Origin: a bacterium
GTDB lineage: Bacteria > SAR324 > JACQKK01
NCBI GenBank assembly: GCA_965205845.1
Contig: CBDBIG010000003.1
Location: 313,117-377,116, forward strand
Length of the DNA stretch: 64,000 nt
Reading direction: 5' to 3'
The notes beneath the pieces were generated by a model. That model was not told where the DNA came from. It worked only from the letters and a program-made list of their open reading frames with translations, and ran no database searches. This document shows positions 8,832 to 48,591 of this stretch, piece after piece. How positions within the stretch are numbered: position 1 is the first letter of the stretch; every line of letters begins with the position of its first letter. A program made the position numbers and the translations under genes.

Positions 8832-8866
8832 CACTCGCAGAACACACCCGCACCCTTAAAAGGTGT

Positions 8867-21078: not shown

Positions 21079-21329
21079 TGTCACCAAACCCTCTCGGTGA
21101 AAGGAAACGAAAAGTCCCCCAAGCACCCAAAAAACCGCCGCAGCCTTCCTTGTGGAGCAAAGGCGTGCGATTTATGGCGGTGGGTGTTGAGGTAGCCGTT
21201 GCGATTTTGCTAAGCTTATGGGTGGGTCAGTGGCTTGACATCCGCCTTGGTAGCGAGCCTTGGCTATTGTTGGGATGCATGTTGGTTGGGATGATTGCCG
21301 CGCTCCGTATTTTAATGCGTTTGCGCTAG
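21075..21329 (+). CDS. atpZ: Small 2-TM membrane protein in the atpZ/AtpI-like position at the head of the F0 ATP synthase operon
   Basis: 84 aa. It has a basic N-terminus and two hydrophobic helices (VGVEVAVAILLSLWVGQWL / LLLGCMLVGMIAALRIL). It is immediately upstream of atpI-atpB-atpE. Its 3' end is the first unit of the 87-bp array. Confidence 0.6.
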   Translation: MMSPNPLGERKRKVPQAPKKPPQPSLWSKGVRFMAVGVEVAVAILLSLWVGQWLDIRLGSEPWLLLGCMLVGMIAALRILMRLR

Positions 21330-23404: not shown

Positions 23405-23674
23405 CCTACTGATTGCTTGGCCTTAAAGCGATGAGGGGCACATTAGGGCAAAACAACACGCTCTTTGGTTTTTCTTTAAAAGGCGGCTAAAGGGCACGTT
23501 TGGGTGGGTACGTGTCGCCAAGCGATTTGGCGGATTGCTTGTTCCTTTCGCCCCTTGCCCCCGTTTACCGGGGGTTGCTTGGCTCGTACTTTTTGATGAG
23601 GCTATTTATCAGCATATGTGCAAGCTTTTGGCTGTGATACAAGGCCTTATGTAACCAACCACTTCCGCCCAAGA

Positions 23675-23860
23675 GCGATCTCATTCAATCCCGTCGCGTT
23701 GTGTTCGCCCGTAGCCGATCAAAAACCCTTGTGAAAGCGATCTCATTCAATCCCGTCGCGTTGTGTTCGCCCGTAGCCGATCAAAAACCCTTGTGAAAGC
23801 GATCTCATTCAATCCCATCGCGTTGTGTTCGCCCGTAGCCGATCAAAAACCCTTGTGAAT
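23675..23860. repeat. 62-bp tandem repeat x3 (GCGATCTCATTCAATCCCGTCGCGTTGTGTTCGCCCGTAGCCGATCAAAAACCCTTGTGAAA)
   Basis: Units at 23675, 23737 and 23799 in the gene-free region downstream of atpE. Confidence 0.9.
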
Positions 23861-24214: not shown

Positions 24215-24252
24215 GCCCTTGCGTATCACTTAAAGCGGGCAAGGGCTTTTTT
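24215..24252 (+). terminator. Rho-independent terminator candidate
   Basis: GCCCTTGCGTATCACTTAAAGCGGGCAAGGGC (8-bp GC-rich stem) followed by TTTTTT. Confidence 0.6.
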
Positions 24253-24473
24253 GGGGTTATTCTCTATTGCCTTGGTGCTGTGGGTTGGCTTTTCTTGGAG
24301 TGCTTCCTCTTGGGTAGGAGGCCTCGGCAGCACTCTCGAGCCTTGAAGCCCTTTTGCAAAAGCACCTTGCATTCTCTGGGGGCAGGCTTTACCCACAAAA
24401 CCTAAAACCGCGTTATGAATCGCTACGCTATTGCGGGCAAAAGCCCTTTTTTGAGCATGGCTTGCCCTTTGGT

Positions 24474-24593
24474 CGATTTCAAACACAGGTTCAAACACAG
24501 GTTCAAACACAGGTTCAAACACAGGTTCAAACACAGGTTCAAACACAGGTTCAAACACAGGTTCAAACACAGGTTCAAACACAGTGCCATCAA
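24474..24593. repeat. 12-bp microsatellite (CAGGTTCAAACA) x10
   Basis: Read directly. It yields the FEPV/QTQV/FKHR peptide repeats seen in three ORF-track frames. Confidence 0.95.
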
Positions 24594-24644
24594 TCGCAAT
24601 GCTCGCCTTGACCTTAAAACCCCAAACCCATTCCTTCTTGGACG

Positions 24645-25124
24645 CCAGCCACCTGTTCCGCAGAGCAGATTCGAAGCCACGAGCGTTTACAAATGCTGTC
24701 AACAGCCGTAAAAAAAGAGTACTTGCGTTACATGAGGCGCAATCACCGACGTGGTAGCCCTCCCATGCGCGCATCATGAAAGAAATGTGCTACACTGAGG
24801 TGTCCTACGAACAGGCTTGGTTGGCTCTGCAGCCAGTTAAGTCGTTCATCCAAGTTTTGGCCCTTTTTTTAAGTATCACATGTACCAGCCACCTGTTCCG
24901 CAGAGCAGGTTCGAAGCCACGAGCGTTTACAAATGCTGTCAACAGCCGTAAAAAAAGAGTACTTGCGTTACATGAGGCGCAATCACCGACGTGGTGGCCC
25001 TCCCATGCGCGCATAATGAAAGAAATGTGCTACACTGAGGTGTCCTACGAACAGGCTTGGTTGGCTCTGCAGCCAGTTAAGTCGTTCATCCAAGTTTTGG
25101 CCCTTTTTTAAGTATCACACGTAT
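24645..25124. repeat. 240-bp direct tandem duplication (x2), near-identical
   Basis: Unit 1 is 24645-24884 and unit 2 is 24885-25124 (CCAGCCACCTGTTCCGCAGAGCAG...GGCCCTTTTTTTAAGTATCACA). Each unit carries a sigma70-like TTTACA-N17-TAAAAA and a T-run. Confidence 0.95.
24686..24714 (+). promoter_or_regulatory. Candidate sigma70-type promoter (TTTACA - 17 bp - TAAAAA), repeated at 24926-24954 in the second 240-bp unit
   Basis: -35/-10-like hexamers with 17-bp spacer read directly. A T7 run at 24864-24870 lies about 150 nt downstream, a possible short transcript. Speculative. Confidence 0.3.
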
Positions 25125-25135
25125 CTGTGTAAACG

Positions 25136-26509
25136 ATGTTTGAAGTATTACGCGAACGATTTCATCAGGCAGCCAACCAGTTCAAAGGCGGACGTTTGCG
25201 CCAAGAATTACTGGAAGAAGTACTCGAACAGGTGCGTGCTGCCTTGCTTGAAGCGGATGCTGGGCTGGAAAGCATTGCGCTATTTTTGGAGTGCTTGCGC
25301 CGGCGCTGTGAGCAAGAAGCCCCCCCGAATGATGAGGGTGTCTCTGCCAGTCAACGCTTTTTAAAAATGGCAGCAGAAGAATTGGCCACCATGATGGGAG
25401 GGGAAGAGGCCAAACCCTTGCGCACAACAGGTCGCCCCGCCTTGATTATGTTGGTGGGGCTACAAGGGGCAGGCAAAACAACCACTTGCGCCAAGCTGGC
25501 TTTGCACTTGCAGACCACCACTAAAAAGCGCTGTCATATGGCTTCTACCGACCACCGCCGTCCTGCCGCCATGGAACAACTTGCAGTGTTAGCGCAAGGT
25601 TTGGGTGTGTCTTGTAGCCCTCCCAACACGGCCAAGAATGCCATGAAACTGGCACGTTATGGTCTTTCTGCAGCCAAAAAAGCCAAGTGTGAAGTGCTAC
25701 TGCTTGACACCGCGGGGCGCTTGGAAATGGACACGGCACTCATGGATGAATTGGCTCAAATGGCCCAGGTGCTTCAACCCACTGAAATTTTGTACGTGGC
25801 TGATGGAATGAGCGGGCAAAATGCCGTGCAAGCATCGCGTCAATTTGCCGCAAAACTGCCTTTAACAGGATGCATTTTAACCAAAATGGAAGGGGATGCC
25901 AGGGGCGGGGCGGCCATTTCGATTCGTCACGGAAGTGGTGCTGTGGTTAAATTTATGGGCGTCGGAGAAAACCCTAAAGACCTCGAGGTTTTTCATCCGC
26001 AACGTATTGCCTCACGTATTTTGGGCTTAGGAGATATCCTCTCCTTAATGGAGCGGGCAGAAACGCTGTATAGCGAAGAAAAATCCCTTGAAATCCAGCG
26101 CAAAATGGCGCAGAACGCTTTTACTCTCACCGACTTTTTAGAGCAACTGCGCAATTTTAAAAGCATTGGGTCCATGAGTGAATGGAAGGAAATGCTACCC
26201 GCGTTGGGCAATGCTGGGGGCAACAAAATGGATGAAGGGCGCATGCGTAAAATGGAAGCAATGATTTGCTCAATGACCTTCGCCGAACGCGAGAACCATC
26301 AAATCATAAACCCTTCAAGGCTTCTCCGGATTGCCAAGGGCAGTGGCTGTAAAACCAGCGATGTCCAGCGTTTGCTTAAGCGGTTTAGACAAATGCGCAA
26401 AACCATGAAAAACCTGCGACAGTTGCAAAAGCAAAATGGCGGGGATTTAAGTTCTTTGCTCGGCGGAATGGGCGGGGAAGGGATAAAGGCTGGAAAAGGT
26501 TTTTTTTGA
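25136..26509 (+). CDS. ffh: Signal recognition particle protein Ffh
   Basis: N domain MFEVLRERF...LLEADAG, the GTPase motif MLVGLQGAGKTTTCAKLA plus DTAGR, and an M domain with a Met-rich C-terminal region. Confidence 0.93.
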   Translation: MFEVLRERFHQAANQFKGGRLRQELLEEVLEQVRAALLEADAGLESIALFLECLRRRCEQEAPPNDEGVSASQRFLKMAAEELATMMGGEEAKPLRTTGRPALIMLVGLQGAGKTTTCAKLALHLQTTTKKRCHMASTDHRRPAAMEQLAVLAQGLGVSCSPPNTAKNAMKLARYGLSAAKKAKCEVLLLDTAGRLEMDTALMDELAQMAQVLQPTEILYVADGMSGQNAVQASRQFAAKLPLTGCILTKMEGDARGGAAISIRHGSGAVVKFMGVGENPKDLEVFHPQRIASRILGLGDILSLMERAETLYSEEKSLEIQRKMAQNAFTLTDFLEQLRNFKSIGSMSEWKEMLPALGNAGGNKMDEGRMRKMEAMICSMTFAERENHQIINPSRLLRIAKGSGCKTSDVQRLLKRFRQMRKTMKNLRQLQKQNGGDLSSLLGGMGGEGIKAGKGFF

Positions 26510-27300: not shown

Positions 27301-27466
27301 AGAAATTTTCACATCTGCCAGCCCCGGCAATATGGGGGTGCTTTGCGTAAAAGGCATCCATGGTTGGCCTTGTCTACGTGGGGTGACTTTGCGTAAAGAG
27401 GCCCTGTGGTTGGGCTTTACTGCTCTATGGCAGTGCTCAACGCGCTGGGGCTGACTTGCCACAAGC

Positions 27467-27658
27467 AACGCTGAGGTGCACATTGTTGTAAACCGTGTTT
27501 GAAAGAGGGGCGCTCGATTGAAACCATGCTGTTTGACCGCGAACAACTCCCTTGCATTAAGCAACGCTGAGGTGCACATTGTTGTAAACCGTGTTTGAAA
27601 GAGGGGCGCTCGATTGAAACCATGCTGTTTGACCGCGAACAACTCCCTTGCATTGGCG
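27467..27658. repeat. 96-bp tandem duplication (x2) covering the RBS, start codon and first 11 codons of rimM
   Basis: Units at 27467-27562 and 27563-27658. Copy 1 contains ATGCTGTTTGACCGCGAACAACTCCCTTGCATT and runs into TGA, giving the decoy ORF MLFDREQLPCIKQR. Copy 2 is the real rimM start at 27622. Confidence 0.9.
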
Positions 27659-30559: not shown

Positions 30560-30990
30560 CAACGACAAGAACCATTTTACAACCACACCCCAGCAAGGTC
30601 GCTAAACCAGCATCGCCCCATGCAAAGGTGGAACGCACAAAGCACGGCGACAAGAACCATTTTACAACCACACCGCAGCAAGGTCGCTAAACCAGCATGA
30701 CCCCATGCAAAGGTGGAACGCACAAAGCACGGCGACAAAAACCATTTTACAACCACACCCCAGCAAGGTCGCTAAACCAGCATCGCCCCATGCAAAGGTG
30801 GAACGCACAAAGCACGGCGACAAAAACCATTTTACAACCACACCCCAGCAAGGTCGCTAAACCAGCATCGCCCCATGCAAAGGTGGAACGCACAAAAGCA
30901 CGGCGACAAAAACCATTTTACAACCACACCCCAGCAAGGTCGCTAAACCAGCATCGCCCCATGCAAAGGTGGAACGCACAAAAGCACAGC
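30560..30990. repeat. 85/86-bp tandem repeat x5 between the gamma-CA-like gene and nfeD
   Basis: Marker ACCATTTTACAACCACACC occurs at 30571, 30656, 30741, 30826 and 30912. The units encode nothing recognisable. Confidence 0.9.
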
Positions 30991-31574: not shown

Positions 31575-32426
31575 ATGTTTTTTTATCGCATCCCCCAAGC
31601 CCATGTGATGGTGGTTGAACGCTTGGGTAAATTTCACCGCATTTGCCAGCCTGGTTTAAGGGTACTTTTGCCCATACTCGATTACCCCAAAGAAATGCCC
31701 GAATGGGAAGGGCGTGGAGTACGCTTAGTGGGCAGCCGTCCTATTTTGGTGGAGCTGGCAGAGCAATCTTTAGGGACAGAACCACGTGCGAGCATTACCC
31801 GCGACAACGTGCAGCTGCGTGTTGACACGCTTATTTATTGGCAGGTTACCGATGTGATGCGTGCCGTGTATGAAGTAGATGTGCTGCCCAATGCCATTTT
31901 GGATCTTACCCTGACCACCTTGCGCTCGGTAATTGGCAGCATGAACATGGATGAGGCCATTAGCAACCGCCTAAAAATTAACGACGCTGTGCAAACCGAG
32001 CTTCAAGGTGCGGTGGAAAAATGGGGGGTGCGGGTCAACCGTGTGGAAATTCAAGAACTGCATGCCTCGGATGAAGCCTCTGCGGCAATGCTGAAACAAA
32101 TGACCGCTGAGCGTGAAAAACGCGCAGCCGTTACCGAAGCCGAAGGGAAAAAAGCCGCCGCTATTTTAGAGGCAGAAGGCTATCGCGAGGCGGTGCTCAT
32201 CCGTTCAAAGGCGGATGCGGATGCCATGAAGGAGTTTGCCCGTGGGGAAGCAGAATTTCTAAAACCACTCCACCAAGTGCTGGGAGAAAAGAACGGAATG
32301 AATTTTGCTCTCGCTGCAAAATACCTCCGCACCCTTGGCAGCATGGATGAAACAGCCAAGGTGTTTTTGCCCTTAAACCTGGCTGAAGCCATTGATACGG
32401 TTTTACGCGGCACGGGCAAAAAATAA
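31575..32426 (+). CDS. SPFH/band-7 (stomatin-like) protein
   Basis: VVERLGKFHRICQPGLRVLLPILD, a band-7 core, and a Glu/Ala-rich coiled-coil tail. Canonical nfeD-SPFH pair. Confidence 0.85.
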   Translation: MFFYRIPQAHVMVVERLGKFHRICQPGLRVLLPILDYPKEMPEWEGRGVRLVGSRPILVELAEQSLGTEPRASITRDNVQLRVDTLIYWQVTDVMRAVYEVDVLPNAILDLTLTTLRSVIGSMNMDEAISNRLKINDAVQTELQGAVEKWGVRVNRVEIQELHASDEASAAMLKQMTAEREKRAAVTEAEGKKAAAILEAEGYREAVLIRSKADADAMKEFARGEAEFLKPLHQVLGEKNGMNFALAAKYLRTLGSMDETAKVFLPLNLAEAIDTVLRGTGKK

Positions 32427-32831
32427 GGGCATTTGCAAAAGTGGTTGCTTTTAAGCAATCTTGCAAGCCTCATTCAAGCATTGTTATAGACGCGGCACGG
32501 GCAAAAAATAAGGGCATTTGCAAAAGCAGTTGCTTTTAAGCAATCTTGCAAACCTCATTCAAGCATTGTTATAGACGCGGCACGGGCAAAAAATAAGGGC
32601 ATTTGCAAAAGCAGTTGCTTTTAAGCAATCTTGCAAGCCTCATTCAAGCATTGTTATAGACGCGGCACGGGCAAAAAATAAGGGCATTTGCAAAAGCAGT
32701 TGCTTTTAAGCAATCTTGCAAGCCTCATTCAAGCATTGTTATAGACGCGGCACGGGCAAAAAATAAGGGCATTTGCAAAAGCAGTTGCTTTTAAGCAATC
32801 TTGCAAACCTCATTCAAGCATTGAATAGAAA
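32407..32831. repeat. 85-bp tandem repeat x5 that starts inside the SPFH gene 3' end (includes the TAA stop) and fills the whole intergenic space up to the next start codon
   Basis: GCGGCACGGGCAAAAAATAAGGGC marker at 32407, 32492, 32577, 32662 and 32747 with exact 85-bp period. The first unit encodes …LRGTGKK-stop. Confidence 0.95.
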
Positions 32832-34708: not shown

Positions 34709-35575
34709 ATGACACAACCCGCCACCTTGCAAGATATCAACGCCTTCCCCCCACTGGCGGTTTTAAACGCTAATGTACACAGGGTGCTCGGCATGAACCC
34801 TTCTGCCTTCACGGGACCAGGAACCAACACCTACCTGGTGGGGCAGGCGGGGTCGAACCCTGTATTGATAGACTCGGGGATTGGAGTGCCCGTTTGGCAG
34901 AAAAACTTACAAACCCACACGCAACAGCAAAAGCATGCACCCCAGCGCTGCTTGTTTACCCACGGTCACCCCGACCATATTGGTGGTTGGCAACAACTGC
35001 GTGCACTCTGGCCCAACATTCCCTTTTACAAAATGCCCTGGCCTCAAAAAGATGGTGCGCTCACCCCACAATTAACACCCATTCAAGATGGCAATGTGTT
35101 TGAGGGAGAAGGCTACACGTTGCGCGCTGTACACACCCCAGGGCATGCCCCAGATCATATTTGTTTTTGGCTTGAAGAAGAAAAAGCCTTGTTCACGGGG
35201 GATGTCGTGCTAGGCATTGGAACCACGGTGATTCCACAAGACGGTGGTAACATGAAGCAATACCTTGGATCGCTGCAACGCTTGCTTGAGATGAAACCCG
35301 AGCGCATTTATCCAGGGCATGGTCCCGTTATTGAAAACGCCTGTGCCACCATTACAAACCTCATCAACCATCGCCTGCAACGCGAGGAACAAGTGCTCAA
35401 TTGCGTGGGTGATGGCCTTGAAAGCGTGGAGGAAATTGTAGCCTTGCTCTACCAAAAATATCCCAAAAACCTACACCACGCAGCAGGACAATCGGTGCTG
35501 TCTCACCTGGACAAATTGGTGGAAGACGGGCGGGTTGTGCGTACGGGGATGCCGCCACGCTTTGGCTTATTGTAA
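34709..35575 (+). CDS. MBL-fold metallo-hydrolase
   Basis: LFTHGHPDHIGG (H-x-H-x-DH), HTPGHAPDH, and GDVVLGIGT with the downstream His. Confidence 0.8.
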   Translation: MTQPATLQDINAFPPLAVLNANVHRVLGMNPSAFTGPGTNTYLVGQAGSNPVLIDSGIGVPVWQKNLQTHTQQQKHAPQRCLFTHGHPDHIGGWQQLRALWPNIPFYKMPWPQKDGALTPQLTPIQDGNVFEGEGYTLRAVHTPGHAPDHICFWLEEEKALFTGDVVLGIGTTVIPQDGGNMKQYLGSLQRLLEMKPERIYPGHGPVIENACATITNLINHRLQREEQVLNCVGDGLESVEEIVALLYQKYPKNLHHAAGQSVLSHLDKLVEDGRVVRTGMPPRFGLL

Positions 35576-35709
35576 GCGCGATTTGAGCACTTAACACGCA
35601 CTTCTTTTGTGAACCTTGGAAAAAAGCCTGCCTGGCTACAAACACAACGGCTTTGTGGGGGTATGGTGCGTTCAAAAAAACATCCTCGCACCATGATGGT
35701 TATTTTATT

Positions 35710-36594
35710 ATGGTGACACCCCCCCCTTGCCTTACCAACGCAGATACACCCCAAAAAACGCGTCAACTGCTGGGTGAGCGGCTGCAAACGTTTGTACCCA
35801 GGCCCCCACCCTATCCGCTGATTATGGGCATTATCAACGTCACCCCAAACTCGTTTAGCGATGGTGGCGACCTACCCCAGCTCGAGGATGTGCTCCGTCG
35901 GGCAGGCACCTTAAAGGGCGAAGGGGCAGATATTTTAGATGTAGGTGGGGCGTCCTCACATCCCAATGCCCCCCATACCCCAATTAAAGTGGAATTACAG
36001 CGCGTTGTGCCCGTGGTGAAAACCCTACACCAGCAAGGATTGGGACCTATTTCAATCGATACCCAACACCCTGCTGTCGCGCAGCAATGCCTGCACGCAG
36101 GGGCGCACCTAATCAACGATGTAAGCGGCCTTTGCACCACCCAAACCCCCAACGCTGATATGGCCGCGATCGCTGCTCAATTTGGAGCGCCGCTGGTGAT
36201 CACCTGCAACCATTTGAACCAACCCCCTCCCCCCAACACGCCTTTGTTAGAAGGGATGCTCCATTTTTTTAAGCAGCGCATTACCGCCGCCAAAAAGCAC
36301 GGGGCGACCCAACTTATTTTGGATCCTGGGTATGGTTTTGGCAAAAGCCTGCCCCAAAACTTGCAAACTTTGCGCGAACTTTCAAGTTTAATCCCTTTGG
36401 GTTACCCTATTTTAACCTGCACTTCGCGCAAAGGTTCCCTTGGCAAGTTAAGCGCAGAACCCAAACCAAAGGAACGCCTAGGTGCCGGTTTGGCAAGTGC
36501 ATTCTTTGCGCTGAAACAAGGGGCTAGCATTGTGCGTACCCATGATGTAAAACCCTTGCACCAGTTCGTTCATCTATGGCACACTTTGCGGTGA
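35710..36594 (+). CDS. folP: Dihydropteroate synthase
   Basis: IMGIINVTPNSFSDGGD (the DHPS N-terminal motif), DILDVGG, and GASIVRTHDV (C-terminal motif). The start is uncertain (ORF-track ATG at 35653; a later ATG at 35710 was used). Confidence 0.85.
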   Translation: MVTPPPCLTNADTPQKTRQLLGERLQTFVPRPPPYPLIMGIINVTPNSFSDGGDLPQLEDVLRRAGTLKGEGADILDVGGASSHPNAPHTPIKVELQRVVPVVKTLHQQGLGPISIDTQHPAVAQQCLHAGAHLINDVSGLCTTQTPNADMAAIAAQFGAPLVITCNHLNQPPPPNTPLLEGMLHFFKQRITAAKKHGATQLILDPGYGFGKSLPQNLQTLRELSSLIPLGYPILTCTSRKGSLGKLSAEPKPKERLGAGLASAFFALKQGASIVRTHDVKPLHQFVHLWHTLR

Positions 36595-37240
36595 CCCGCG
36601 CACAACATAGGCTAGGCAACACCTTATATAAATTTTTTTGTTTTTATGGCGTAAAAAAATTAAAGCATCGTTATTGCGCTTTTTGTATGTGATGTTTTGC
36701 GCAAGGCTTGGGCGTTGGCGGCTTGGCCACTGTACGCGCGTTTTCTCACATCATTTCAAAATACAGTCAATTAAGAAGCACGCAAGCCTGCTTGCCGCCG
36801 ATATTTCCTTGCGCAAAACACGCCTTTTTACGGCAGCCGAAAAGCGTGAGGTAAAACGCTTGCAACAAGCAAAGGCGCGCGTTGTGCGGACCCATGATGC
36901 TAAAACCCTTGCACCAGTTCGTTCATCTATGGAACCCCTTACGATGACCCACGCACAATTTGGCTATGAGCAGGACCTTAAATGAACTTTTTTTGGTTTT
37001 TATGGCGTAAAGAAATCAAAGCCTCGTTATTGCGCTTTTTGTTTGTGATGTTTTGCGCAGGCTTGGGCGTTGGCGGTTTAGCCACTGTACGCGCGTTTTC
37101 TCACACCATTCAAAATACGGTCAATCAAGAAGCACGCAGCCTGCTTGCCGCCGATATTTCCTTGCGCAAAACGCGCCCTTTTACGGCAGCCGAAAAGCGT
37201 GAGGTAAAACGCTTGCAACAAGCAGGGGCGCGCGTTGTGC
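36530..37240. repeat. ~355-bp tandem duplication spanning the folP 3' end, the intergenic spacer and the first ~85 codons of the downstream FtsX-permease gene
   Basis: Unit 1 is about 36530-36885 and unit 2 about 36886-37240. GTGCG[GT]ACCCATGATG...CACCAGTTCGTTCATCTATGG..., TTTTTATGGCGTAAA[AG]AAATCAAAG...CGCTTTTTGT[AT]TGTGATGTTTTGCGCA...GCCACTGTACGCGCGTTTTCTCACA...CGCTTGCAACAAGCA. About 93% identity. The junction lies at the short homology TTGTGC. Confidence 0.9.
36638..36985 (+). pseudogene. Chimeric ORF created by the 355-bp duplication: N-terminal 80 aa of the FtsX-permease fused to a diverged copy of the FolP C-terminus
   Basis: MFLWRKKIKASLLRFLYVMFCARLG...LLAADISLRKTRLFTAAEKREVKRLQQAKARVVRTHDAKTLAPV. 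Compare the real gene MNFFWFLWRKEIKASLLRFLFVMFCAGLG...LLAADISLRKTRPFTAAEKREVKRLQQAGARVVQ and the FolP end VRTHDVKPLHQFVHLWHTLR. Confidence 0.6.
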
Positions 37241-39516
37241 AAGGCATCCGCTTTTTGTCTTTGGTGCAGCGTCTCGATGCCAATGGCAAGCCTCTTGCCG
37301 CCCGTCTTGCAGGGGTGCGCGGTGTGCAGGCGGGATATCCTTTGTATGGGCGTGTGATTACCGCATCGGGAAAGCCGTTGAGTCAATTGCTCACCAAAGG
37401 GCATGCTTTGGTCGAAGAAAGTTTGCTCTATCAGTTGGACGCCAAGGTAGGCGACACGCTGCGCTTGGGCAAGGTAGAACTTAAAATTGCCGATGTGCTG
37501 ATACGCGAGCCCGATGCCACCGTGCAATTTAGCCGTTTTGCTCCACGCTTACTCATGGGTTTTGAAGAAGCCCAGGCAAGCGGCCTGATTGGGCCCGCCA
37601 GCCGCGTGGTCCGTAACACGCTCATTCGTCTGCCTAAAACACAAGACCCCCACCAACAAGCCGATTCTCTGCGCAAGGCTTTACCCAATCGCTTTTCAAC
37701 CATTCGTACCTACGACCAAGCCCAACCCTTTTTTAGGCGCATCAAACGCACTCTAGAAGACTACCTTAACCTCATTGGCCTTGCGGCTTTACTGCTCTCG
37801 GGCGTGGGCATAGCGGGGGCAGTGCGCGTACACACCTTGCGCAGTGCCAACCCTTACGCACTCTACCGTTGCCTGGGTGCCCCTACCCGTACGCTTTTGG
37901 GTGTACACGTGATGACGGTGGGGTTTTTTGGTATTTTGGGCGGAATCCTGGGCGGCATCATTGGAGGCCTTGCCCAGCAGGTACTTAACCTATGGCTTGG
38001 GGAATTGTTGCCCGTAAAACTGGTGTTTGCTTGGACTCCCCGTTTGTTGATTCCCCCGGTTGTGATGGGCGCGGTGGTTGCCGTTTGGTTTTCGCTTGCA
38101 GCACTGTGGCGCTTAGGCCAAACCCCACCCGTACAAACCCTCCGCCGCGACATTGCCCATGAGGGAGTGCGAGGCTTGTTTCGTTTACCCGAAGCACTGA
38201 CAAGCTTTGCGATGAGCATTGCCTTTGCCTGCGTGATGGTGTGGCTCACCGTGGGGTTTAACACCCTATCGCTTATTTTTATCGGTGCTTTGGCTGCTGC
38301 CATGGTGCTGTGCCCATTGATTGGCTTGGGCCTGATTGCATTGATTCGCGGCTTGCCCTCGGCATGGCCCTTTATTGTACGCCAAGGGGTGGCTTGCCTA
38401 CACCGCCCTGGCAATCAAACTTTAACCATTATTGCCTCGATTGGTTTAGGAGGCTTGGTGTTGTTTACTGCATTACTGTTGCGCAACGATTTACTGCACC
38501 AACTTACCCCTTCGAAGGAGGTTGACCAACCCAATGTGTTTATGGTGGATATTCAACCCAGTCAACGCGAAACTTTTCGCCTTTTGGCCAAAAAACATGG
38601 CCTCGGCAACGCAAATTTAACCCCCATTGTTCGCGGGCGGATTAAGGCTGTAAAAGGCGAACGTGTTAAACCCAACGAAATCGAAAACAGTGACGCACTC
38701 CGCTATTTACGCTTTGAATATGCCATGACGTATCGCGATGCGCTGGGGCAAGACGAAAAATTGCTAAAAGGTACATTTGCCCATGACCCTAGCATTTTAG
38801 GTCCCCAGGTGTCGGTTACCCAATGGTTGGTTGATCACGGCAAATTTGGGATTGGCGACACCATTACCATGGACATTCAAGGGGTTCACGTGAAGGCCAC
38901 CATTACCAGCATTCGCCGTGTCAATTGGCGTAGTCGCCGTGCCAATTACTCTTTGGTGTTTTTGCCAGGAGCACTTGAAGAGGCACCAAAAATTTACCTC
39001 GCCGAAGCTTTTTTGCCCACAGCCCAAGCCAAGGCCAACCTGCGCCGCGATTTGGTGAAAACCCTGCCTAATGTAAGCATGCTCGATATTGAAAGCATTT
39101 TAAAAACCCTTAACCTTGTGCTGGATCGCGCTGCTGCTGCCTTGCGTTTTATGGCGGTGTTTTTGCTCATCATTGGGTTGAGTATTTTGTTTAGCGCAAT
39201 CCTTGCCTCAAGGGTAGTACGCCTAAAAGAGGTGGGTTTGTGGCGTGCCTTGGGATCCAGTCAGCAAACCATTTTGCAGATTACCGCGGTCGAACAAGGC
39301 ATTTTAGGGTTGGCTGCAGGTGCTGTTACCGTTATGGGAGCCAATGTGCTCGCCTGGGCCTTGCTGCGCTTCGTGTTTCATTTCAACTTTCATTTTTCAT
39401 GGGAGCATAGCATGCTGGCCTGGGGCATCACCATTCTTAGCACGACGGCAGGTGGGGTTTTATGCAGTTGGCCTACGCTGCGCGGCACCCCCCTTTCCGT
39501 TTTAAAGGAAGAATAG
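36982..39516 (+). CDS. ABC transporter permease with duplicated FtsX domains (YbbP/MacB-like, about 10 TM)
   Basis: 844 aa. Two FtsX-type 4-TM modules, each preceded by a large extracytoplasmic domain. The N-terminal TM is followed by a MacB-like periplasmic domain. No ATPase domain was found in the window. Confidence 0.75.
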   Translation: MNFFWFLWRKEIKASLLRFLFVMFCAGLGVGGLATVRAFSHTIQNTVNQEARSLLAADISLRKTRPFTAAEKREVKRLQQAGARVVQGIRFLSLVQRLDANGKPLAARLAGVRGVQAGYPLYGRVITASGKPLSQLLTKGHALVEESLLYQLDAKVGDTLRLGKVELKIADVLIREPDATVQFSRFAPRLLMGFEEAQASGLIGPASRVVRNTLIRLPKTQDPHQQADSLRKALPNRFSTIRTYDQAQPFFRRIKRTLEDYLNLIGLAALLLSGVGIAGAVRVHTLRSANPYALYRCLGAPTRTLLGVHVMTVGFFGILGGILGGIIGGLAQQVLNLWLGELLPVKLVFAWTPRLLIPPVVMGAVVAVWFSLAALWRLGQTPPVQTLRRDIAHEGVRGLFRLPEALTSFAMSIAFACVMVWLTVGFNTLSLIFIGALAAAMVLCPLIGLGLIALIRGLPSAWPFIVRQGVACLHRPGNQTLTIIASIGLGGLVLFTALLLRNDLLHQLTPSKEVDQPNVFMVDIQPSQRETFRLLAKKHGLGNANLTPIVRGRIKAVKGERVKPNEIENSDALRYLRFEYAMTYRDALGQDEKLLKGTFAHDPSILGPQVSVTQWLVDHGKFGIGDTITMDIQGVHVKATITSIRRVNWRSRRANYSLVFLPGALEEAPKIYLAEAFLPTAQAKANLRRDLVKTLPNVSMLDIESILKTLNLVLDRAAAALRFMAVFLLIIGLSILFSAILASRVVRLKEVGLWRALGSSQQTILQITAVEQGILGLAAGAVTVMGANVLAWALLRFVFHFNFHFSWEHSMLAWGITILSTTAGGVLCSWPTLRGTPLSVLKEE

Positions 39517-42600: not shown

Positions 42601-43497
42601 TGGTTCATTCCCTTGTTCGGTTAAAATACGCACGGCCCGCTGTGCTTGCTGCGCAAAGGCTTGGCCCAGATGGGTTTGTTCCAAGGTTTGTTCCAAGGTC
42701 CCCAACGATTGCTGTAGCCAGTAAGCCCATGCTTGGTTGTGCTGTTGGAGCCACTCACGCCATGGTTGCGCGTTTGGCGTGTTTTTGGTGTTGCTGGCAT
42801 GAGGGCTTAACATGCCAAGCCACTGATCGCGGGTTCTTAGCATATGGGCCAGCATGCTGGCTGCTTGCATGTACTGGTTGTCCATGTAATCCAAAAAAGA
42901 TCCCGCTGCTTGAGACAACGGACCCTCCTTTTCCAGCGCACTCAAAGCCTGCATGGCTGCGCGTTGATACAGCAATTCGGAATCATCAAGTACCGTGTTG
43001 CTGCCGCTTGTTTTACGCTGAAAAGGGGCACTGCGTACAATGTGGGAGCACAGGGAATCGATGGTTTGAATGCGCAAGCGATGTGGCATTTCCAGCAGTT
43101 GCCAGTTTTTTTCTTGGTTGCGTGTATACGCTGCCAGGGCTAGTTGCTGGCGCCCTTGTTCTTGGGTACTAGGTTTGGCAGCGGCATCTTTGGAGTGGGA
43201 TTGAGGCACCCCCTCTTGTAAAGCGTTCAATACACGCTGGCGCATTTCGGCAGCAGCTTTTTTGCTAAAGGTAATGGCCAGTACGTGCTCTGGCTCTTCC
43301 ACCTGTGCCAGCAATGCCAACACGCGCTGGATAAGAAGCTCGGTTTTACCCGAACCTGCTGGAGCTTGTACAATAAACGAGTGCTTGGTGCAGAGTGCTT
43401 GTTGGCGCAGCGCATCATCAGGAGAAGCCTGGGCTGGTATATCAGCAGTGCGCGAGTACGTCGTGTGTTGGGTGTCCTTGTTTTGCATATCGCTCAT
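39697..43497 (-). CDS. addA: ATP-dependent helicase/nuclease subunit A (AddA; UvrD-family helicase plus C-terminal RecB-type nuclease)
   Basis: Walker A FIVQAPAGSGKTELLIQRVLALL, UvrD-like motifs, and the C-terminal nuclease motif ILDRSFVHQKIRWIVDYKVEGQ (G-x-ID-x... IVDYK). 1266 aa. The start overlaps the addB stop by 4 bp. Carries a C9 tract at 42392-42400. Confidence 0.85.
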   Translation of the reverse strand: MSDMQNKDTQHTTYSRTADIPAQASPDDALRQQALCTKHSFIVQAPAGSGKTELLIQRVLALLAQVEEPEHVLAITFSKKAAAEMRQRVLNALQEGVPQSHSKDAAAKPSTQEQGRQQLALAAYTRNQEKNWQLLEMPHRLRIQTIDSLCSHIVRSAPFQRKTSGSNTVLDDSELLYQRAAMQALSALEKEGPLSQAAGSFLDYMDNQYMQAASMLAHMLRTRDQWLGMLSPHASNTKNTPNAQPWREWLQQHNQAWAYWLQQSLGTLEQTLEQTHLGQAFAQQAQRAVRILTEQGNEPSLLTALAKVDNWPQTPKDSDFQTPTQFYQGLQQCLGLWRSWAAFLLTQAGRVRKNLDKNLGYLNKQMGGGAGEQAKREMKLLLKQLAAVPHAVAGLSDVRHYCAPPFAKVQGQELQAIMRMAWHANQCLQALFAQEGGIDYLQITQDALLVLDEAPFLHAFGKTGLHHLLVDEFQDTSHTQLQLLTLLTRHFNDGQENSLFLVGDPMQAIYRFRGAEVAVFLHVIDHGLGQVKPQFLRLQVNFRSSPALIRWTNRIFEQMSPAKQYAALGAIRFAQAMPPQTSIPPRNHPHTPCIAYVCTPNREATPSHAPPDWAQQLAMRLQSCMQQDTTLHQQTPRVAVLFRTRKHVQPFLQAMRLHRIAYQGVDLETLGTQQEALDISSLVHALYLPDDAIAWMAVLRAPWCGLCLSDLHQICPSVHNGHDTTLLSVYERLQNPAVQATLSLDGRARIQPVLHAFKAAFVLRERLALRDWVEGCWLALNGPATLQNPNITIQTQALHTVQACFAQLEKPLQGGELPWPYALEARLAKVYAPNQPSSLQQVQVMSIHKAKGTEFDVVVLPGLHFGVKNSDTSVLRWEKGALNTSMDDTPGDSLAHKQPTPNLLAQAVFMAPRPNAYDAAAQKEPSLYEWLAQRDKQRQANEALRLLYVAVTRAKKHILLGGELKVAAPQGPGKNLPEQGSFLRFLWDGGEEKAIKNSVPDSLSATHEAKTQPPFAAQTTDQPAEATPRMLQRLNLGWQCVDYPPGLPDPPWDDRWTQTQGAKEEASVKEALGFHDFDHARHTNRLVGEEVHALLMQMANDGLQGWNSTKIAALQAQIKARLLAQGVDLGHLTQAVQTVQHALNNVITDANGRWLLRCPGVTEMPLWVANGSNQPKKRILDRSFVHQKIRWIVDYKVEGQTHELRGVQLEAFIAERIDEHKAQLQAYGDAFYRWDARLPICLGVYFALQRHFVSWKYQPVGLADAL

Positions 43498-46400
43498 TTT
43501 AAAAAAATGCCTTCTTGGGTATTTTCTGAGTCACCAAGATGGCTTTTTTTGGGTGTGCCCAGGGGGCCTTCTTTGGCTTTTATGCGGCAAAAAGCCGTAA
43601 AATCGCAATACTCGCAGGCGTCGTCTTGAGGATCGACCTGCGCTGCCCCTCGAGAAAATTGTTTCACGCTTTTTTCAAATGCCTGTTGCCAACGTGCCAA
43701 CAGTGCTGGCTGTGTAGGCCATGGGTTTTTACCCCAGGTGCTTACTTTGTTGCCAAACAAACTGTCTTTGAATGTGACCTCACTCAAGCCAATCATCTCC
43801 ATGCCTTTGCGGTGCAGTTTGGCAAAAGCAAGTGCCATCAGGGGTTTTTGCTGCTGCGCTGGCTGTTGTGCTTGTTTTTGGAGCCAGGCCAAGGCATAAA
43901 GGGGCAGTTGGGGTTGGGTAATGCGTTCCTCGTTCTGCCATGAATGAAGGGGCAGTGTTTCTCCCGTTTTATAGTCCAGCAACACGGCAGCCTCAACCGC
44001 TTCTTGTGCATTCGATTCAAGGCTGCATTCTACGTAGTCCAAGCGGTCGAGACGTAGGCTTAAGGGCAAGCCAACCACGCTAAAGTCCAGTTTTTCCTCT
44101 TGCTTGCCTACACAAAAATCGCCCCTTTCCATGGCTTCTTTTTCCAACCATGCTGTGAGCAAACGGGTGATACGTTTGCCTTCCAAGCGTGCGGCGGCGG
44201 GAGAAAGCATCACGGTTTTTTTGCTTGCCTGTGCTTCGCTCGGTTTAGCTTGTGCTGCGGGGTCTGCGGGGTCTGCGGGGTCTGCGGGGTCTGCGGGGTC
44301 TGCGGGGTCTGCGGGGTCTGCGGGGTCTGCGGGGTCTGCGGGGTTGCTTACGCGAATAACACGCCCAATGGTGCGTTCCAAGGCTTGCTTAAAAGCCAAA
44401 GGTTTGGCAAGGAGGGCTCGTAATTCGCTTTGGCTTTGGGCCGCATCGTGCCAAAAAATTTCCAACACCCAGTGCACAATATTGCCTCGGGTCAGTGCGT
44501 CCAAACCTGTTTGCGCAAGGGTTTTTTTTTGGAGCATCAGGCGGTGCCTTGCAAAACTGCGAAAAGGGCAGAGCGCAATATCTTGGAGCAAACTTGCACC
44601 ACCCTTTAGGGTAGACACATCAATGGGCGGCCCGTTGGAATCGGGGCATGACTGCCAAGGCGAATGGCTTTGGGCATGGTCCAACATGGCCATCCATGCC
44701 GTGTGGGGGGGTGTCGGCATGGCACCTTTGGTGACGATAGGAGGGGGGGTGATGGTTTGCAGCAAGGAGCTGGGTCTGCGCTCCTCTTCGCTATCTAACT
44801 GCTGGGTTGCGTGGCTAATAACCACCTGCTTGGCGCTATGCAACAAGCGCGTCAGGCTCATTTTTCCCAGTGCAAGTTCACGGGCAGCACTTGAGCGTGG
44901 CATCTGATGGTCGCGTTGAAAAGCAAGGGGTAGCAAAGCATGCGGCATGGGCGGGGGAGGCCAGTGTTGATCATCAAAGCCCAACACCCATAGGTGGTCA
45001 AAAAAGAGACCGCTAGCCTGCCATGGTCCTAAAATATGGAGGCTTGCTTCGAATCCCTCGGCTTGAAAGGGGGTTTCTGCAACGATCCGTTGTAACCATG
45101 CAAACGCTTGGTTTGCAGACCATAGGTTCGTCGTTTGTGTATTTTGGATTCCATCGAGGGTGGAAAATACCTGCAACGCCTTTAAAAATCTCTTTTTTGC
45201 CTGTGCCTCGGTACTGTTAAGACCGCCCTCGGTTTGGCTCCCGTTTTTGGAAAAACCCAAGGTCCAACCCGCTGTGTGCAACAGGTTTAAAAAAAAATGC
45301 GCCCATTGCGAGGGCATTTTGTGCGTTGTTTGGGCCAATTGCCACGCATTTTTCCAAGCTTGCATTGGTTGGCACCATGTCTGCAGTTCTACCCCCGAAC
45401 GTTGCGCTTGTTGCAGCACATGGCGCACTGAAAACGGCTCAACCCAGGTGGCCAAAAAACGATGCGCAAACCGTGCACGCGGAATGCGTTCGGCGGTGGC
45501 ACCCACAATAAATGGGCTTGTAACCCACTGCACAAAATGCTTGGCACTGCGTGCAACCAAAGGGGATTGCAACAAGAGCAAGGCCGCTTGGACCAACCCT
45601 TGCTCGCTGAGTGGTGGTGCATAGGAAAGGTTAAAGGGCTTGGCTGCACCTGCCTCGGTTGCATGGGTAATCAGGGTTTTGATGGGGGATAAATACTGTG
45701 TACAGACCGTGTGCACCCGTTGCCATTCTTCTTGCAGATTGGGGTGGATAATCGCAATTTTTTGCTTTGGGTTTTTTTGGGATAAGTCACGTGCCCAAAG
45801 CAGTGCTCCCTCTAATTCCTTTTGCGAGTTTGAATACGGATGCACGGTAGGAGGGTTTGCCAACGGCGGTGGTGCTTGCCTTTGGGGTTGTGGCTCGGCT
45901 TGGGCGCGGGGTAGGGCAAGCCAAGTGCTAGCTGGCACGTTCACGGGGACCCACTCCACCACCACTTGTAGAGTACGCAATGCATCAAACAACCGCTCTT
46001 GCTGCGGGGTCAAGACATCAAACCCGCAGAGCACCATGTTGGTGGGCAACATAAACCCAAAGCCTTGGGTACTACCTTGTTCTCCAAGGTAATGTTCCCT
46101 TTCCAAAGCATGCACCACCAAACTGGCTACCTGTTCTTGACTACACCACCCTTGGGTATGCATTGCTTGCCCAAAAGCCAATGCCCAATTGACAAAAACC
46201 TTGGCTTCCAATTGCAACGTATGGGCAAAGGCTTCCTTTGCATGGGGCTGTAAAAACGCTCCTATGGTGGTATTCCAGCCCACAACATGCCACTCGCATA
46301 GCAAACCCCATGCTTGCTGTGCCAAGGCAGCGGCTTTGGCTGGTGTTAAGGGCTTATGAGTCGTCGTTGGGTTATGCAGGGGTGTTGTGCGGGAATTACG

Positions 46401-46691
46401 TGTATTGGCAACGTTCCATCCGCAACGTGCAATTACTTGCTCCCACATAAGCCGTTCTTGCCACATATCCAAGGGCCATGGGGCTACATGCTGCGCGTCG
46501 AATCGGCCCAAGCGCAGTGCTTGCCACAGGCTACGTACCCATTCGTGCCAAACCACAATGTAAGAATCTTCCCAAACCCGCAGGCCTGCTTGGTATTTTT
46601 GCGCGTCATATTGTGTGGTGAGTTCATGCTGCAAACGCTTATTTGCAGTGAGTGTGAGCGTGGTTTGTGGGCGTTTTTGGAAGGCTTCCAT
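43494..46691 (-). CDS. addB: ATP-dependent helicase/nuclease subunit B (AddB) with Fe-S-stapled PD-(D/E)xK nuclease domain
   Basis: C-terminal AAVLLDYKTGE nuclease motif, and the cysteine cluster DDACEYCDFTAFCRIK typical of the AddB iron-sulfur staple. 1065 aa. Contains the in-frame PAD x9 repeat and two 9-nt A/T homopolymers. Confidence 0.8.
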   Translation of the reverse strand: MEAFQKRPQTTLTLTANKRLQHELTTQYDAQKYQAGLRVWEDSYIVVWHEWVRSLWQALRLGRFDAQHVAPWPLDMWQERLMWEQVIARCGWNVANTRNSRTTPLHNPTTTHKPLTPAKAAALAQQAWGLLCEWHVVGWNTTIGAFLQPHAKEAFAHTLQLEAKVFVNWALAFGQAMHTQGWCSQEQVASLVVHALEREHYLGEQGSTQGFGFMLPTNMVLCGFDVLTPQQERLFDALRTLQVVVEWVPVNVPASTWLALPRAQAEPQPQRQAPPPLANPPTVHPYSNSQKELEGALLWARDLSQKNPKQKIAIIHPNLQEEWQRVHTVCTQYLSPIKTLITHATEAGAAKPFNLSYAPPLSEQGLVQAALLLLQSPLVARSAKHFVQWVTSPFIVGATAERIPRARFAHRFLATWVEPFSVRHVLQQAQRSGVELQTWCQPMQAWKNAWQLAQTTHKMPSQWAHFFLNLLHTAGWTLGFSKNGSQTEGGLNSTEAQAKKRFLKALQVFSTLDGIQNTQTTNLWSANQAFAWLQRIVAETPFQAEGFEASLHILGPWQASGLFFDHLWVLGFDDQHWPPPPMPHALLPLAFQRDHQMPRSSAARELALGKMSLTRLLHSAKQVVISHATQQLDSEEERRPSSLLQTITPPPIVTKGAMPTPPHTAWMAMLDHAQSHSPWQSCPDSNGPPIDVSTLKGGASLLQDIALCPFRSFARHRLMLQKKTLAQTGLDALTRGNIVHWVLEIFWHDAAQSQSELRALLAKPLAFKQALERTIGRVIRVSNPADPADPADPADPADPADPADPADPADPAAQAKPSEAQASKKTVMLSPAAARLEGKRITRLLTAWLEKEAMERGDFCVGKQEEKLDFSVVGLPLSLRLDRLDYVECSLESNAQEAVEAAVLLDYKTGETLPLHSWQNEERITQPQLPLYALAWLQKQAQQPAQQQKPLMALAFAKLHRKGMEMIGLSEVTFKDSLFGNKVSTWGKNPWPTQPALLARWQQAFEKSVKQFSRGAAQVDPQDDACEYCDFTAFCRIKAKEGPLGTPKKSHLGDSENTQEGIFLK
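44259..44339. repeat. 9-bp microsatellite (GGGGTCTGC) x9 inside addB, in frame (encodes PADPADPAD... on the minus strand)
   Basis: Read directly. 9 perfect units. The ORF track shows PADPADPADPADPADPADPADPADPA within AddB. Confidence 0.95.
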
Positions 46692-46846
46692 CTGTTTTGT
46701 TCCATTGTTTTAAAAAGAGCTGCTCTTTTTTGCACACGTATCCCCATCTTTAAAATCTCACAAACGAAGTACAAGTGCCATGAGAACGATGGCTTGTTAT
46801 CGGCATAACCCTTGTGGCTATCGCAATTTAAATCGGTCTGATAGGG

Positions 46847-47062
46847 CACAAAGCCAAACGCACCTTGATTCTCGCGCTCAAGGATTTTCTTTTCTGCATG
46901 CCAGCGTCCAAGTTTTATCCCATTTTTCCCTGCGCTGCTTCCTTGTGCACAAAGCCAAACGCACCTTGATTCTCGCGCTCAGGGATTTTCTTTTCTGCAT
47001 GCCAGCGTCCAAATTTTGTCCCATTTTTCCCTGCTTCGGGTTCCTTGTGCACAAAGCCAAAC
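46847..47062. repeat. 101-bp tandem duplication (x2, bounded by a 13-bp direct repeat CACAAAGCCAAAC) covering the thyX 3' end, stop codon and downstream
   Basis: Units at 46861-46960 and 46961-47062 have a few SNPs and one small indel. This makes the ThyX C-terminus FGFVHKEPEAGK...GAFGFVHKEAAQGKMG-stop with FGFVHKE twice. 101 is not a multiple of 3, so the copies are read in different frames. Confidence 0.9.
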
Positions 47063-48591
47063 AAGGGTGCAAATAAAGGATGCGCTTTCAGTACGCATTG
47101 ATACATCTGCTGGGCAATCCCTCTGTATACCAAATGGCCTTGGGGCATCGTGCGTAACTCGGTTAACCAAATCAGTGCCCTTAAATTGAGATGCACCTGC
47201 CAGCGTACACGATAAGCCATGGGGAGCACGTAGGCGGCTTGCTCGGCAGAAAAATGCTGGCTCAGTTGCTGGTGCGCCTCGGCGGCTTGCAAAATCGCTT
47301 GGCAAAAAGGTTTTTCTAAGTTTGCCGCTTGAATATCTTCTGGGATCGTATAACCAAGGCTGATTCCAAGGGGTTGCCGTTGCTGGGTTAGGGTGCGATG
47401 GCGGTGCAGGTCGCGAAACGCACCAAAATCCGCCTGCAATTCGAAGGTGTAAAACACCAGTTCGGTGGCTCGGGGGGGCTTGTGGCGGCGGTTTTTGCGC
47501 GCTTTGCCCAGGCTTTCGATGGCTCTTTGGCGGGCGGCGGCGTCTAAGTCTGCCACGCTACGCTGTACGCCATCCCAGGGGCAAGACTGGTCCTCGTACA
47601 ACCACGCCGTAAGCATTTTTTCAACCGCTTGTCCCTCGCTTTCACAGTGCAACAGGCGTACGCATTCTCCACCGTTTTCCGCAATCCCCTCAAAGGCTTG
47701 GGCGACCGAAGCAGGGGGAAATACCTGTGCGAGGGTTTTTTGACGCGCTTTAAGCAGGGTTTGATGGTAGGTTTGTTGCGCTTTGGTGTTGGGGTGCTCC
47801 CTGGCGGAGCGCGTAACGAAAGCGGGAATCACGCCTTCCAGTTCGCATTGCATGGCATTGGCAAGGGCTTGCATTTCAGGCAAAGACTGGCTGCGTGTTT
47901 TGGCAATAAGGCTTTGAAAAAAACGCCCGTTACCATAAAGCCCCATGTTGGTGTGGGTGCAAATGGGAAGCAACCCCCGCAAAACATCCAAGGCGTGTGC
48001 GTGCAATGCTCTTTCCCATGGAATTTTCTTTTGTCCTTGGGGTCGCGGGCTGGCTTGCCTTAAAAATTGCTGTAAAGGGCCAAGCAAATCTCGATAACTG
48101 TCAAACAAAGTGCGCACGGCTTTTAAAAACAACCCTTGCTGGGGTGACGCCATAATTTGAGGGTCTTGATAAAAACGATAGTCACCATTGAAGAGGTCAT
48201 CAAAGCGCACATAACGCGTCGATTTTTCGAGGAATGAGCCCCCAATGCGCGAAGCCTGCAAATGGTTGGCAGCAAGCATCGAAATGCCCTCCAAGGCCAA
48301 GTGTGCACCGCCCAATTCTCCCACCGAATCATCGCCATAGCCATCGAGCACACGTTTGTAAAATGCATGCGCTTTTTTCTCATCGGCTTCCAAAAGGGTC
48401 TCCTCGCCCGCCAAAAATTCGCGCTCCAAGAGGCTGCGCAAATCGAGATTTGAACGCGAATAACGCGAAAACAATGCACCCTTCACCACCTCTGGCAAGG
48501 CTTTTAACGCAAAGATAGGCCTTTGTGTATTGGTTACAAAGCGTGCTACGGTGGTGGGATTAAAGGGCGTTAAAGGGGAATGCTTGTTCAT
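46915..48591 (-). CDS. thyX: FAD-dependent thymidylate synthase ThyX, long tandem-domain form (558 aa)
   Basis: C-half: ELVFYTFELQADFGAFRDLHRHRTLTQQRQ (the ThyX RHR motif) and RVRWQVHLNLRALIWLTELR (ThyX C-terminal N-x-R-x-L helix). N-half: SRIGGSFLEKSTRYVRF (S-x3-S-x-RY half of the ThyX signature) and ALDVLRGLLPICTHTNMGLYGNGRFFQSLIAKTRSQ. Two ThyX-like domains are fused. Confidence 0.65.
   Translation of the reverse strand: MNKHSPLTPFNPTTVARFVTNTQRPIFALKALPEVVKGALFSRYSRSNLDLRSLLEREFLAGEETLLEADEKKAHAFYKRVLDGYGDDSVGELGGAHLALEGISMLAANHLQASRIGGSFLEKSTRYVRFDDLFNGDYRFYQDPQIMASPQQGLFLKAVRTLFDSYRDLLGPLQQFLRQASPRPQGQKKIPWERALHAHALDVLRGLLPICTHTNMGLYGNGRFFQSLIAKTRSQSLPEMQALANAMQCELEGVIPAFVTRSAREHPNTKAQQTYHQTLLKARQKTLAQVFPPASVAQAFEGIAENGGECVRLLHCESEGQAVEKMLTAWLYEDQSCPWDGVQRSVADLDAAARQRAIESLGKARKNRRHKPPRATELVFYTFELQADFGAFRDLHRHRTLTQQRQPLGISLGYTIPEDIQAANLEKPFCQAILQAAEAHQQLSQHFSAEQAAYVLPMAYRVRWQVHLNLRALIWLTELRTMPQGHLVYRGIAQQMYQCVLKAHPLFAPLFGFVHKEPEAGKNGTKFGRWHAEKKIPERENQGAFGFVHKEAAQGKMG

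Follow-up and report, generated by a model that had tools for sequence, protein, structure and literature searches.

A diverged tandem duplication across a folP–permease gene boundary in a SAR324 bacterium and its probable pseudogene relic

Introduction

Tandem duplications joined at short homologies can form in bacteria independently of RecA, through replication slippage or template switching between microhomologies, and the literature on such duplications in E. coli and Salmonella is reportedly covered in reviews by Lovett and by Reams and Roth. Those seen in the laboratory are recent, consist of identical copies, and soon disappear, and the ones usually studied are kilobases to hundreds of kilobases in size. 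Here we analyze a 353-bp tandem repeat that spans the boundary between folP, encoding dihydropteroate synthase, and a gene encoding an FtsX/MacB-type ATP-binding cassette (ABC) transporter permease. The repeat lies in a 64,000-nucleotide stretch of a SAR324 bacterial genome (GenBank assembly GCA_965205845.1, contig CBDBIG010000003.1, positions 313,117 to 377,116 of the forward strand), hereafter called the window, within which all positions are given. A sequence-only reading of this DNA had interpreted the repeat as a duplication that created a chimeric permease/FolP gene. Our data indicate that it is very probably an old microhomology-mediated tandem duplication containing a pseudogene relic, with both flanking genes intact. 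A duplication with such a relic is ordinary in kind and well known.

Unconstrained DNA copies are expected to drift in a predictable direction, as a universal GC-to-AT mutational bias was reportedly described by Hershberg and Petrov in 2010 and by Hildebrand et al. in the same year. For dense tandem repeats, the closest described case is the genome of Ehrlichia ruminantium, in which tandem repeats expand and contract in non-coding regions (PMC10710844). In published analyses with Tandem Repeats Finder (TRF), repeats account for 0.38% of the genome in E. coli K-12, 1.6% in Wolbachia wMel, and 6.3% in E. ruminantium (PMC3287509).

Results

The repeat occupies positions 36530–37240, where TRF reports a period of 353, 2.0 copies, 90% matches, 2% indels, and a score of 1167. 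When the second copy was compared with the 64-kb window by blastn, it matched only itself and the first copy (89.6% identity over 357 columns, E = 5e-130), and no third copy of the unit was found. A global alignment of the two copies contains 32 substitutions and six indel events, the latter involving seven bases in all. Taken together, these three comparisons define copy 1 (36530–36881, + strand, 352 bp), made up of the functional folP tail, a first spacer copy, and a relic of the permease head, and copy 2 (36882–37234, + strand, 353 bp), made up of a relic of the folP tail, a second spacer copy with a working ribosome-binding site (RBS), and the functional permease head. The copies abut head to tail, with no DNA between 36881 and 36882 in either the TRF result or the global alignment. 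The unit thus runs from 65 bp of folP (21 codons plus the stop), through the spacer, to 253 bp of the permease gene (84 codons). TRF, blastn, and alignment therefore bear out the earlier description of a tandem duplication crossing the folP/permease boundary with this gene content, although several of its figures do not hold: the unit measures 352 or 353 bp rather than 355 bp, the spacer 33 nt (copy 1) or 34 nt (copy 2) rather than 44 bp, and the divergence about 9% by substitutions or about 10% including indels rather than about 7%. The view that this repeat is older than the other arrays in the window agrees with its being the most diverged of them (90% matches in TRF versus 91–100% for the others with units of at least 50 bp).

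The junction between the copies carries the hexamer TTGTGC (36882–36887, + strand), which, as read from the sequence, also stands at the left limit of the repeat (36530–36535) and at its right limit (37235–37240). Its contexts are GCA-TTGTGC-GTACCC in folP, GCG-TTGTGC-GGACCC at the junction, and GCG-TTGTGC-AAGGCA in the permease gene. Since permease sequence precedes the junction and folP sequence follows it, the crossover must lie inside this common 6-bp motif, as the sequence-only reading had recognized. The probability of finding at least six common bases at a junction by chance is approximately 0.002. No mobile element or dispersed repeat was found at the ends, and because the unit has no other copy in the window by blastn, an origin from a mobile or dispersed repeat was rejected.

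Eight lesions inactivate an ancestral reading frame or a signal for translation, and all of them fall in the redundant middle 320 bp. Spacer copy 1 (36595–36627, + strand, 33 nt), delimited by alignment and sequence reading, has lost its Shine-Dalgarno motif: it reads GCAACA at 36616–36621 where copy 2 reads GCAGGA, so that AGGA has become AACA. The relic permease head (36628–36881, + strand), a pseudogene fragment according to alignment, blastn, and a homologue profile, has ATA in place of the permease ATG at 36628–36630 and a net loss of 2 bp at 36633–36640, in a T7GG run just after the start. Further along, it carries +1 insertions at 36703, 36754, and 36784, each an A or T added to an A/T run; 27 codons, covering the second half of the helix, are pushed out of frame, and in the ancestral permease frame a CAA codon is replaced by TAA at 36772. 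The relic folP tail (36882–36947, + strand), recognized as a pseudogene fragment by alignment, contains an extra C (+1) at 36900, immediately downstream of the VVRTHD codons; with this base removed, it reads VVRTHDVKPLHQFVHLWNPLR followed by a stop. The proposal that the duplication provides a second RBS and start for the permease is contradicted by the change of GCAGGA to GCAACA, that of ATG to ATA, and the 2 bp missing just afterwards, and with RBS, start, and frames all disabled, the middle piece is very probably not a chimeric permease/FolP gene.

Homologue profiles document the same erosion. Against an N-terminal profile built from 119 permease homologues, the real head scores 64 bits, the frame-repaired relic 53, and the open reading frame (ORF) as it now reads 24; against a C-terminal profile of FolP homologues, the scores are 98 bits for the functional tail and 82 for the relic tail as read. 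Suspicious ORF overlaps elsewhere in the window proved to be separate full-length genes (TrmD/Sir2 and FxsA/LipA), and the long genes are uninterrupted. The absence of frameshifts from other genes of the window argues that the indels of the middle piece are not assembly noise, and sequencing frameshifts were rejected as their source since each member of those overlapping pairs is an intact gene of its own.

The frame that remains open across the middle piece is a 115-amino-acid (aa) ORF with a TTG start (36638–36985, + strand), which the ORF list and a blastn comparison resolve into a mosaic of ancestral and shifted frames. It consists of 22 residues in the permease frame; 27 residues read in a shifted frame across the latter half of the transmembrane helix; 34 residues in which the permease frame is regained; the six residues VVRTHD in the FolP frame; and finally 26 residues of out-of-frame folP tail and spacer, up to a TGA (36983–36985) that overlaps the permease ATG. 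The parental frames are therefore not continuous across the fusion: only 22 + 34 of the 115 residues are in the permease frame and six in that of FolP, a mixture of ancestral and scrambled frames that follows from the frameshifts and the lost start. The N-terminal transmembrane helix attributed to this ORF is gone, as the frame is shifted through half of the helix and the best 19-residue hydropathy window reaches 0.96, compared with 1.98 in the real permease head. Similarly, the supposed diverged FolP C-terminus comes down to VVRTHD, because the +1 C at 36900 turns the remainder into an out-of-frame translation of the folP tail and spacer.

No Pfam match to the 115-aa ORF was found, nor was any Shine-Dalgarno motif upstream of its candidate TTG, GTG, and ATG starts. 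For the source genome, a gene caller annotated a 103-aa version with its start at the TTG at 36674 (P0361, from the window's own contig), and this protein is a singleton cluster among 5.8 billion; judging from the DNA, this call is probably a mis-annotation of a pseudogene fragment. Wrong-frame ORFs of at least 103 aa occur 15 times within the next 9.7 kb of real genes downstream. We also simulated decay by randomly mutating the newborn fusion (reconstructed by taking the present functional copies as ancestral), introducing as many substitutions and indels as were observed. Of these runs, 10% retained an ORF of at least 103 aa and 3.7% one of at least 115 aa, so the open state of the present frame is mildly unusual and does not carry much weight.

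Between the two permease heads, nonsynonymous divergence (dN) is 0.038 and synonymous divergence (dS) is 0.133, and the resulting dN/dS of 0.29, based on 15 substitutions, is compatible with constraint acting on just one of the copies. Of the 15 substituted head sites, 12 carry A/T in the relic against G/C in the working copy, while the reverse holds at two, a skew that fits GC-to-AT mutation bias acting on an unconstrained copy. The relic folP tail is without such a bias (3 versus 3), though it has just six substituted sites. For the translation signals the direction of change is clear, since the ancestral single-copy spacer must have held the permease RBS and ATG, which places their losses in copy 1.

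The spacer copies (36595–36627 versus 36948–36981) have diverged the most, with 11 substitutions in 33 columns, which exceeds both the rest of the unit (Fisher P = 6e-5) and synonymous sites (P = 0.0013). Loss of the redundant RBS and start accounts for three of the changes in the spacer region; the others could reflect selection for silencing a truncated membrane protein that was harmful, adjustment of the working leader, or a single complex mutation. RNA structure in the enlarged folP–permease gap is no stronger than in shuffled controls (z = +0.42), and the gap has no match to an Rfam family; on these grounds a structured RNA or riboswitch was rejected. A consensus scan found neither a promoter nor a terminator on the + strand of the gap.

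Both genes that flank the middle piece are intact. FolP (35710–36594, + strand, 294 aa) matches Pfam Pterin_bind (PF00809) over 1–244 of 244 model positions (E = 3e-55), so that the domain is complete to its C-terminal end, and the last 21 codons plus stop (36530–36594) are the functional copy of the duplicated tail. The permease (36982–39516, + strand, 844 aa), of which codons 1–84 are the functional copy of the duplicated head, matches FtsX (PF02687) in two stretches at 50.8 bits and MacB_PCD (PF12704) at 31.1 bits, both exceeding the Pfam cut-offs, and a protein search returned 1061 full-length homologues, with the family aligning over the full length. Its working 5' leader, as read from the sequence, is spacer copy 2 (36948–36981, + strand, 34 nt), with the RBS AGGA at 36972–36975, 6 nt before the ATG. 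Across 34709–39516 this two-FtsX-domain permease has no adjoining ABC ATPase gene; its neighbors are an MBL-fold hydrolase gene and folP upstream and a gene for an AddA-like helicase downstream on the opposite strand. In E. coli, the homologous ybbP adjoins its ATPase gene, ybbA.

The organism belongs to an orphan lineage, no close relatives having been found. Proteins of the window occur once in the searched collections, on a single 877,621-bp contig; identical proteins are recorded for FolP (P0121, on the window's own contig) and for the permease (P0001). In a search of 5.8 billion proteins, the next-best homologue of the permease after its own entry is 33% identical, and a scan of genome contigs returned just spirochaete loci with 28–29% identity. 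The nearest homologues of FolP are 50–54% identical and those of Ffh (25136–26509) 50% identical, the named ones coming from metagenome-assembled genomes of SAR324, Lambdaproteobacteria, and Deltaproteobacteria. An exact 26-mer from the repeat unit is absent from the metagenome contigs, and genome-contig, protein, and metagenome searches found no independent assembly of the locus. At the closest FolP locus that was read, folP is not followed by an FtsX permease gene. A literature search on SAR324 or Lambdaproteobacteria with tandem repeats returned nothing relevant. The window also encodes trpB, trpD, hemL, mgtE, epmA, and flgK, and the presence of flagellar, tryptophan, and haem biosynthesis genes makes the genome unlike that of a reduced symbiont or obligate intracellular bacterium.

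Tandem arrays are frequent throughout the window: TRF finds 20 loci that together cover 4149 bp (6.5% of the 64 kb), with units of 9–353 bp that are mostly 97–100% identical. This load is approximately 17 times the published figure for E. coli K-12 and about equal to that for E. ruminantium. As controls, 50 kb of E. coli K-12 gave one weak row in TRF and a 14.5-kb spirochaete locus gave none. No cross-matches were found between array units in the window; the units are thus unrelated to one another, which indicates that they arose locally, and a MIRU-like family was rejected for the same reason. Several arrays straddle gene ends. Among the young arrays with resolvable ends, junction microhomology is 0, 0, 0, 1, and 4 bp, compared with 6 bp at folP/permease, which does not sustain the assertion that all are clearly the same process; a common process is plausible as a class.

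The 5' end of rimM carries a perfect 96-bp × 2 duplication (27463–27654, with the rimM ATG at 27622) with 0 bp of junction microhomology. Its upstream copy has an identical leader, an ATG at 27526, and 11 codons followed by KQR-stop; the result is an upstream ORF of 14 codons whose start signals are intact. This duplication is a young analogue of the folP/permease event. A 240-bp × 2 duplication (97%; 24645–25123) takes in the 5' end of a minus-strand ORF of 183 aa (24226–24777, no Pfam match), which also holds a 12-bp × 8.9 array (24478–24584), and it stops 13 bp before the ffh start (25136). Arrays largely fill the intergenic gaps at 21270–21790 (87 bp × 6) and 30563–30987 (85 bp × 5), as well as those at 32405–32823 (85 bp × 4.9), 8663–8834 (56 bp × 3), and 23674–23859 (62 bp × 3), and the array starting at 32405 overlaps the 3' end of an SPFH/Band 7 gene (31575–32426) by 21 bp.

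Other arrays lie within or at the ends of coding sequences. In-frame duplications occur in a histone-deacetylase-family gene (54 bp × 2, 2368–2476) and in scpB (66 bp × 2, 100% identical, 11482–11613), and the gene for an AddB-like PD-(D/E)XK nuclease (43494–46691, minus strand) contains CTGCGGGGT × 10 in frame at 44255–44344. A 101-bp × 2.1 array (93%; 46846–47062) overlaps the 3' end of thyX (46915–48591, minus strand), which is unusually long (558 aa, with two Thy1 stretches); because 101 bp is not a multiple of three, the ThyX C-terminus may be repeat sequence read in different frames.

Discussion

The arrangement of the locus is consistent with a single old, local event. Judging from the junction, misalignment during DNA synthesis, or some other illegitimate join, may have connected two TTGTGC hexamers, one located 65 bp upstream of the folP stop, the other 253 bp inside the permease gene, and would thereby have duplicated the intervening 353 bp head to tail. 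A tandem duplication always spares one full copy for each flank, so that folP keeps the tail in copy 1, whereas copy 2 supplies the permease with its head, start, RBS, and leader. What is left over in the middle is copy 1's permease head fused to copy 2's folP tail, which at birth would have formed a 105-aa in-frame fusion (84 permease and 21 FolP residues) equipped with the permease RBS and ATG. This fusion has since decayed through loss of its RBS and start, frameshifts, and a nonsense codon, lesions that can all be read in the DNA, and the present 115-aa ORF would be an accidental open frame over its remains. The present effect of the duplication may merely be that the gap between folP and the permease grew from 34 to 387 nt.

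Several observations weigh against this account. No relative or second assembly was found that shows the single-copy ancestral state or directly polarizes the differences. The three +1 insertions jointly restore the frame, the TGA overlaps the permease ATG, and a frame this open is expected at P = 0.04–0.10, features that are mildly more orderly than pure decay predicts. Furthermore, the dN/dS of 0.29 is lower than the 0.5 or more expected if the relic had been neutral from birth, though with 15 substitutions the difference is not significant. Spacer divergence is about three times the synonymous divergence (P = 0.0013), for which simple neutral decay is no explanation. Finally, homologous recombination should delete a 353-bp direct repeat long before dS reaches 0.13; given this expectation and the AddAB-like helicase-nuclease pair encoded next door, the persistence of the repeat is unexpected.

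Such features might instead indicate that the middle piece functions as a new gene or as a leader ORF, its three compensating frameshifts kept to hold the frame open and either its 103–115-aa product or the act of translation coupling the permease to folP read-through via ATGA. Its 115 open codons, the TGA overlapping the permease ATG, and the dN/dS of 0.29 are consistent with this idea, as are the retention of so long an ORF in just 3.7–10% of decay simulations, the 103-aa gene call (P0361) in the genome annotation, and the lack of a + strand terminator between folP and the permease gene, which makes co-transcription probable. We nevertheless judge it unlikely: the candidate starts are without a Shine-Dalgarno motif, the ancestral AGGA and ATG having both been destroyed; half of the residues are out of frame and have no homologue, with no Pfam match and a singleton cluster among 5.8 billion proteins; the transmembrane helix is gone; wrong-frame ORFs of similar size are frequent (15 in 9.7 kb); the permease has a good RBS of its own 6 nt upstream of its ATG; and a gene caller's call is no proof of expression. 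An extension of the idea, in which the relic is one stage of a genome-wide regime of short boundary duplications that arise at an exceptional rate and are hardly ever deleted, and in which the 115-aa ORF, ending in ATGA at the permease start beside the fast-evolving spacer, has been kept as a coupling leader, seems no less doubtful. Were it true, each duplication would plant extra starts, upstream ORFs, and fusion ORFs ahead of genes, and the window would span stages from the perfect 96-bp copy of the rimM start to the 10%-diverged folP/permease relic.

Alternatively, selection may have kept the duplication for a regulatory effect, the fast-evolving spacer being the adaptive part: folP and the permease might be uncoupled by the wider gap (387 instead of 34 nt), or a new promoter might have arisen in spacer copy 1. 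The excess of spacer change (11 of 33 columns; P = 6e-5 and 0.0013) and the persistence of a direct repeat to dS 0.13 would agree with this, and through its changes spacer copy 1 has TTATATAAA, an AT-rich string resembling a −10 element, in place of TTAAATGAA. However, the consensus scan found no + strand promoter, no matching −35 was seen upstream of the AT-rich string, and RNA structure in the gap is unremarkable. At least three of the spacer changes (AGGA to AACA, ATG to ATA) are plain loss of a redundant translation start, and persistence is equally explicable by a genome-wide low deletion rate, arrays making up 6.5% of the window; we therefore regard a selected regulatory role as very improbable. 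Still harder to credit is an assembly artefact, such as two strain variants stitched together in tandem, even though the searched collections contain just one assembly of the organism and the window has many further repeat arrays, which are hard to assemble. Artefactual duplications are normally identical, whereas these copies differ by 10%, including six indel events. The join from permease codon 84/85 to folP codon 273 runs through six common bases, and 6 bp is far below any assembler's overlap or k-mer. Moreover, the differences are non-random: they hit precisely the redundant RBS, start, and frames and are AT-biased in the redundant copy, as evolution in place would leave them, whereas two functional alleles would both be intact. 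Decay of a redundant fusion after an old tandem duplication thus remains our preferred explanation.

Taken alone, the locus is of small import, but it offers a clear case of the fate of a redundant join-point fusion. It can also serve as a clock, indicating that short direct repeats here can last to a synonymous divergence of 0.13, and this survival, together with the dense young arrays, suggests an unusual balance between duplication gain and deletion. An array-rich genome without sequenced close relatives is a better lead than the folP/permease locus itself.

Compared with described systems, the locus resembles short-homology duplications in its head-to-tail order, the lack of intervening DNA, the few common bases at the junction, the spared flanks, and the fusion at the join point. 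Unlike laboratory duplications, the folP/permease repeat has survived to about 9% substitutions (dS 0.13) and is only 353 bp long. Like join-point fusion genes, it would have formed an in-frame fusion of 105 aa at birth, with the permease RBS and ATG, but RBS, start, and frames are now destroyed, leaving a dead fusion. The A/T-shifted sites of the relic head (12 versus 2), the single A/T gains in runs, the nonsense codon, and the lost start match pseudogene erosion, whereas the relic folP tail is unbiased (3 versus 3, six sites). The array load resembles that of E. ruminantium (6.5% of the window versus 6.3% of the genome), with units of tens to hundreds of bp that are mostly intergenic and in some cases clip gene ends; in contrast to E. 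ruminantium, however, the load here is that of 64 kb, and it occurs in an unrelated organism whose genome does not look reduced.

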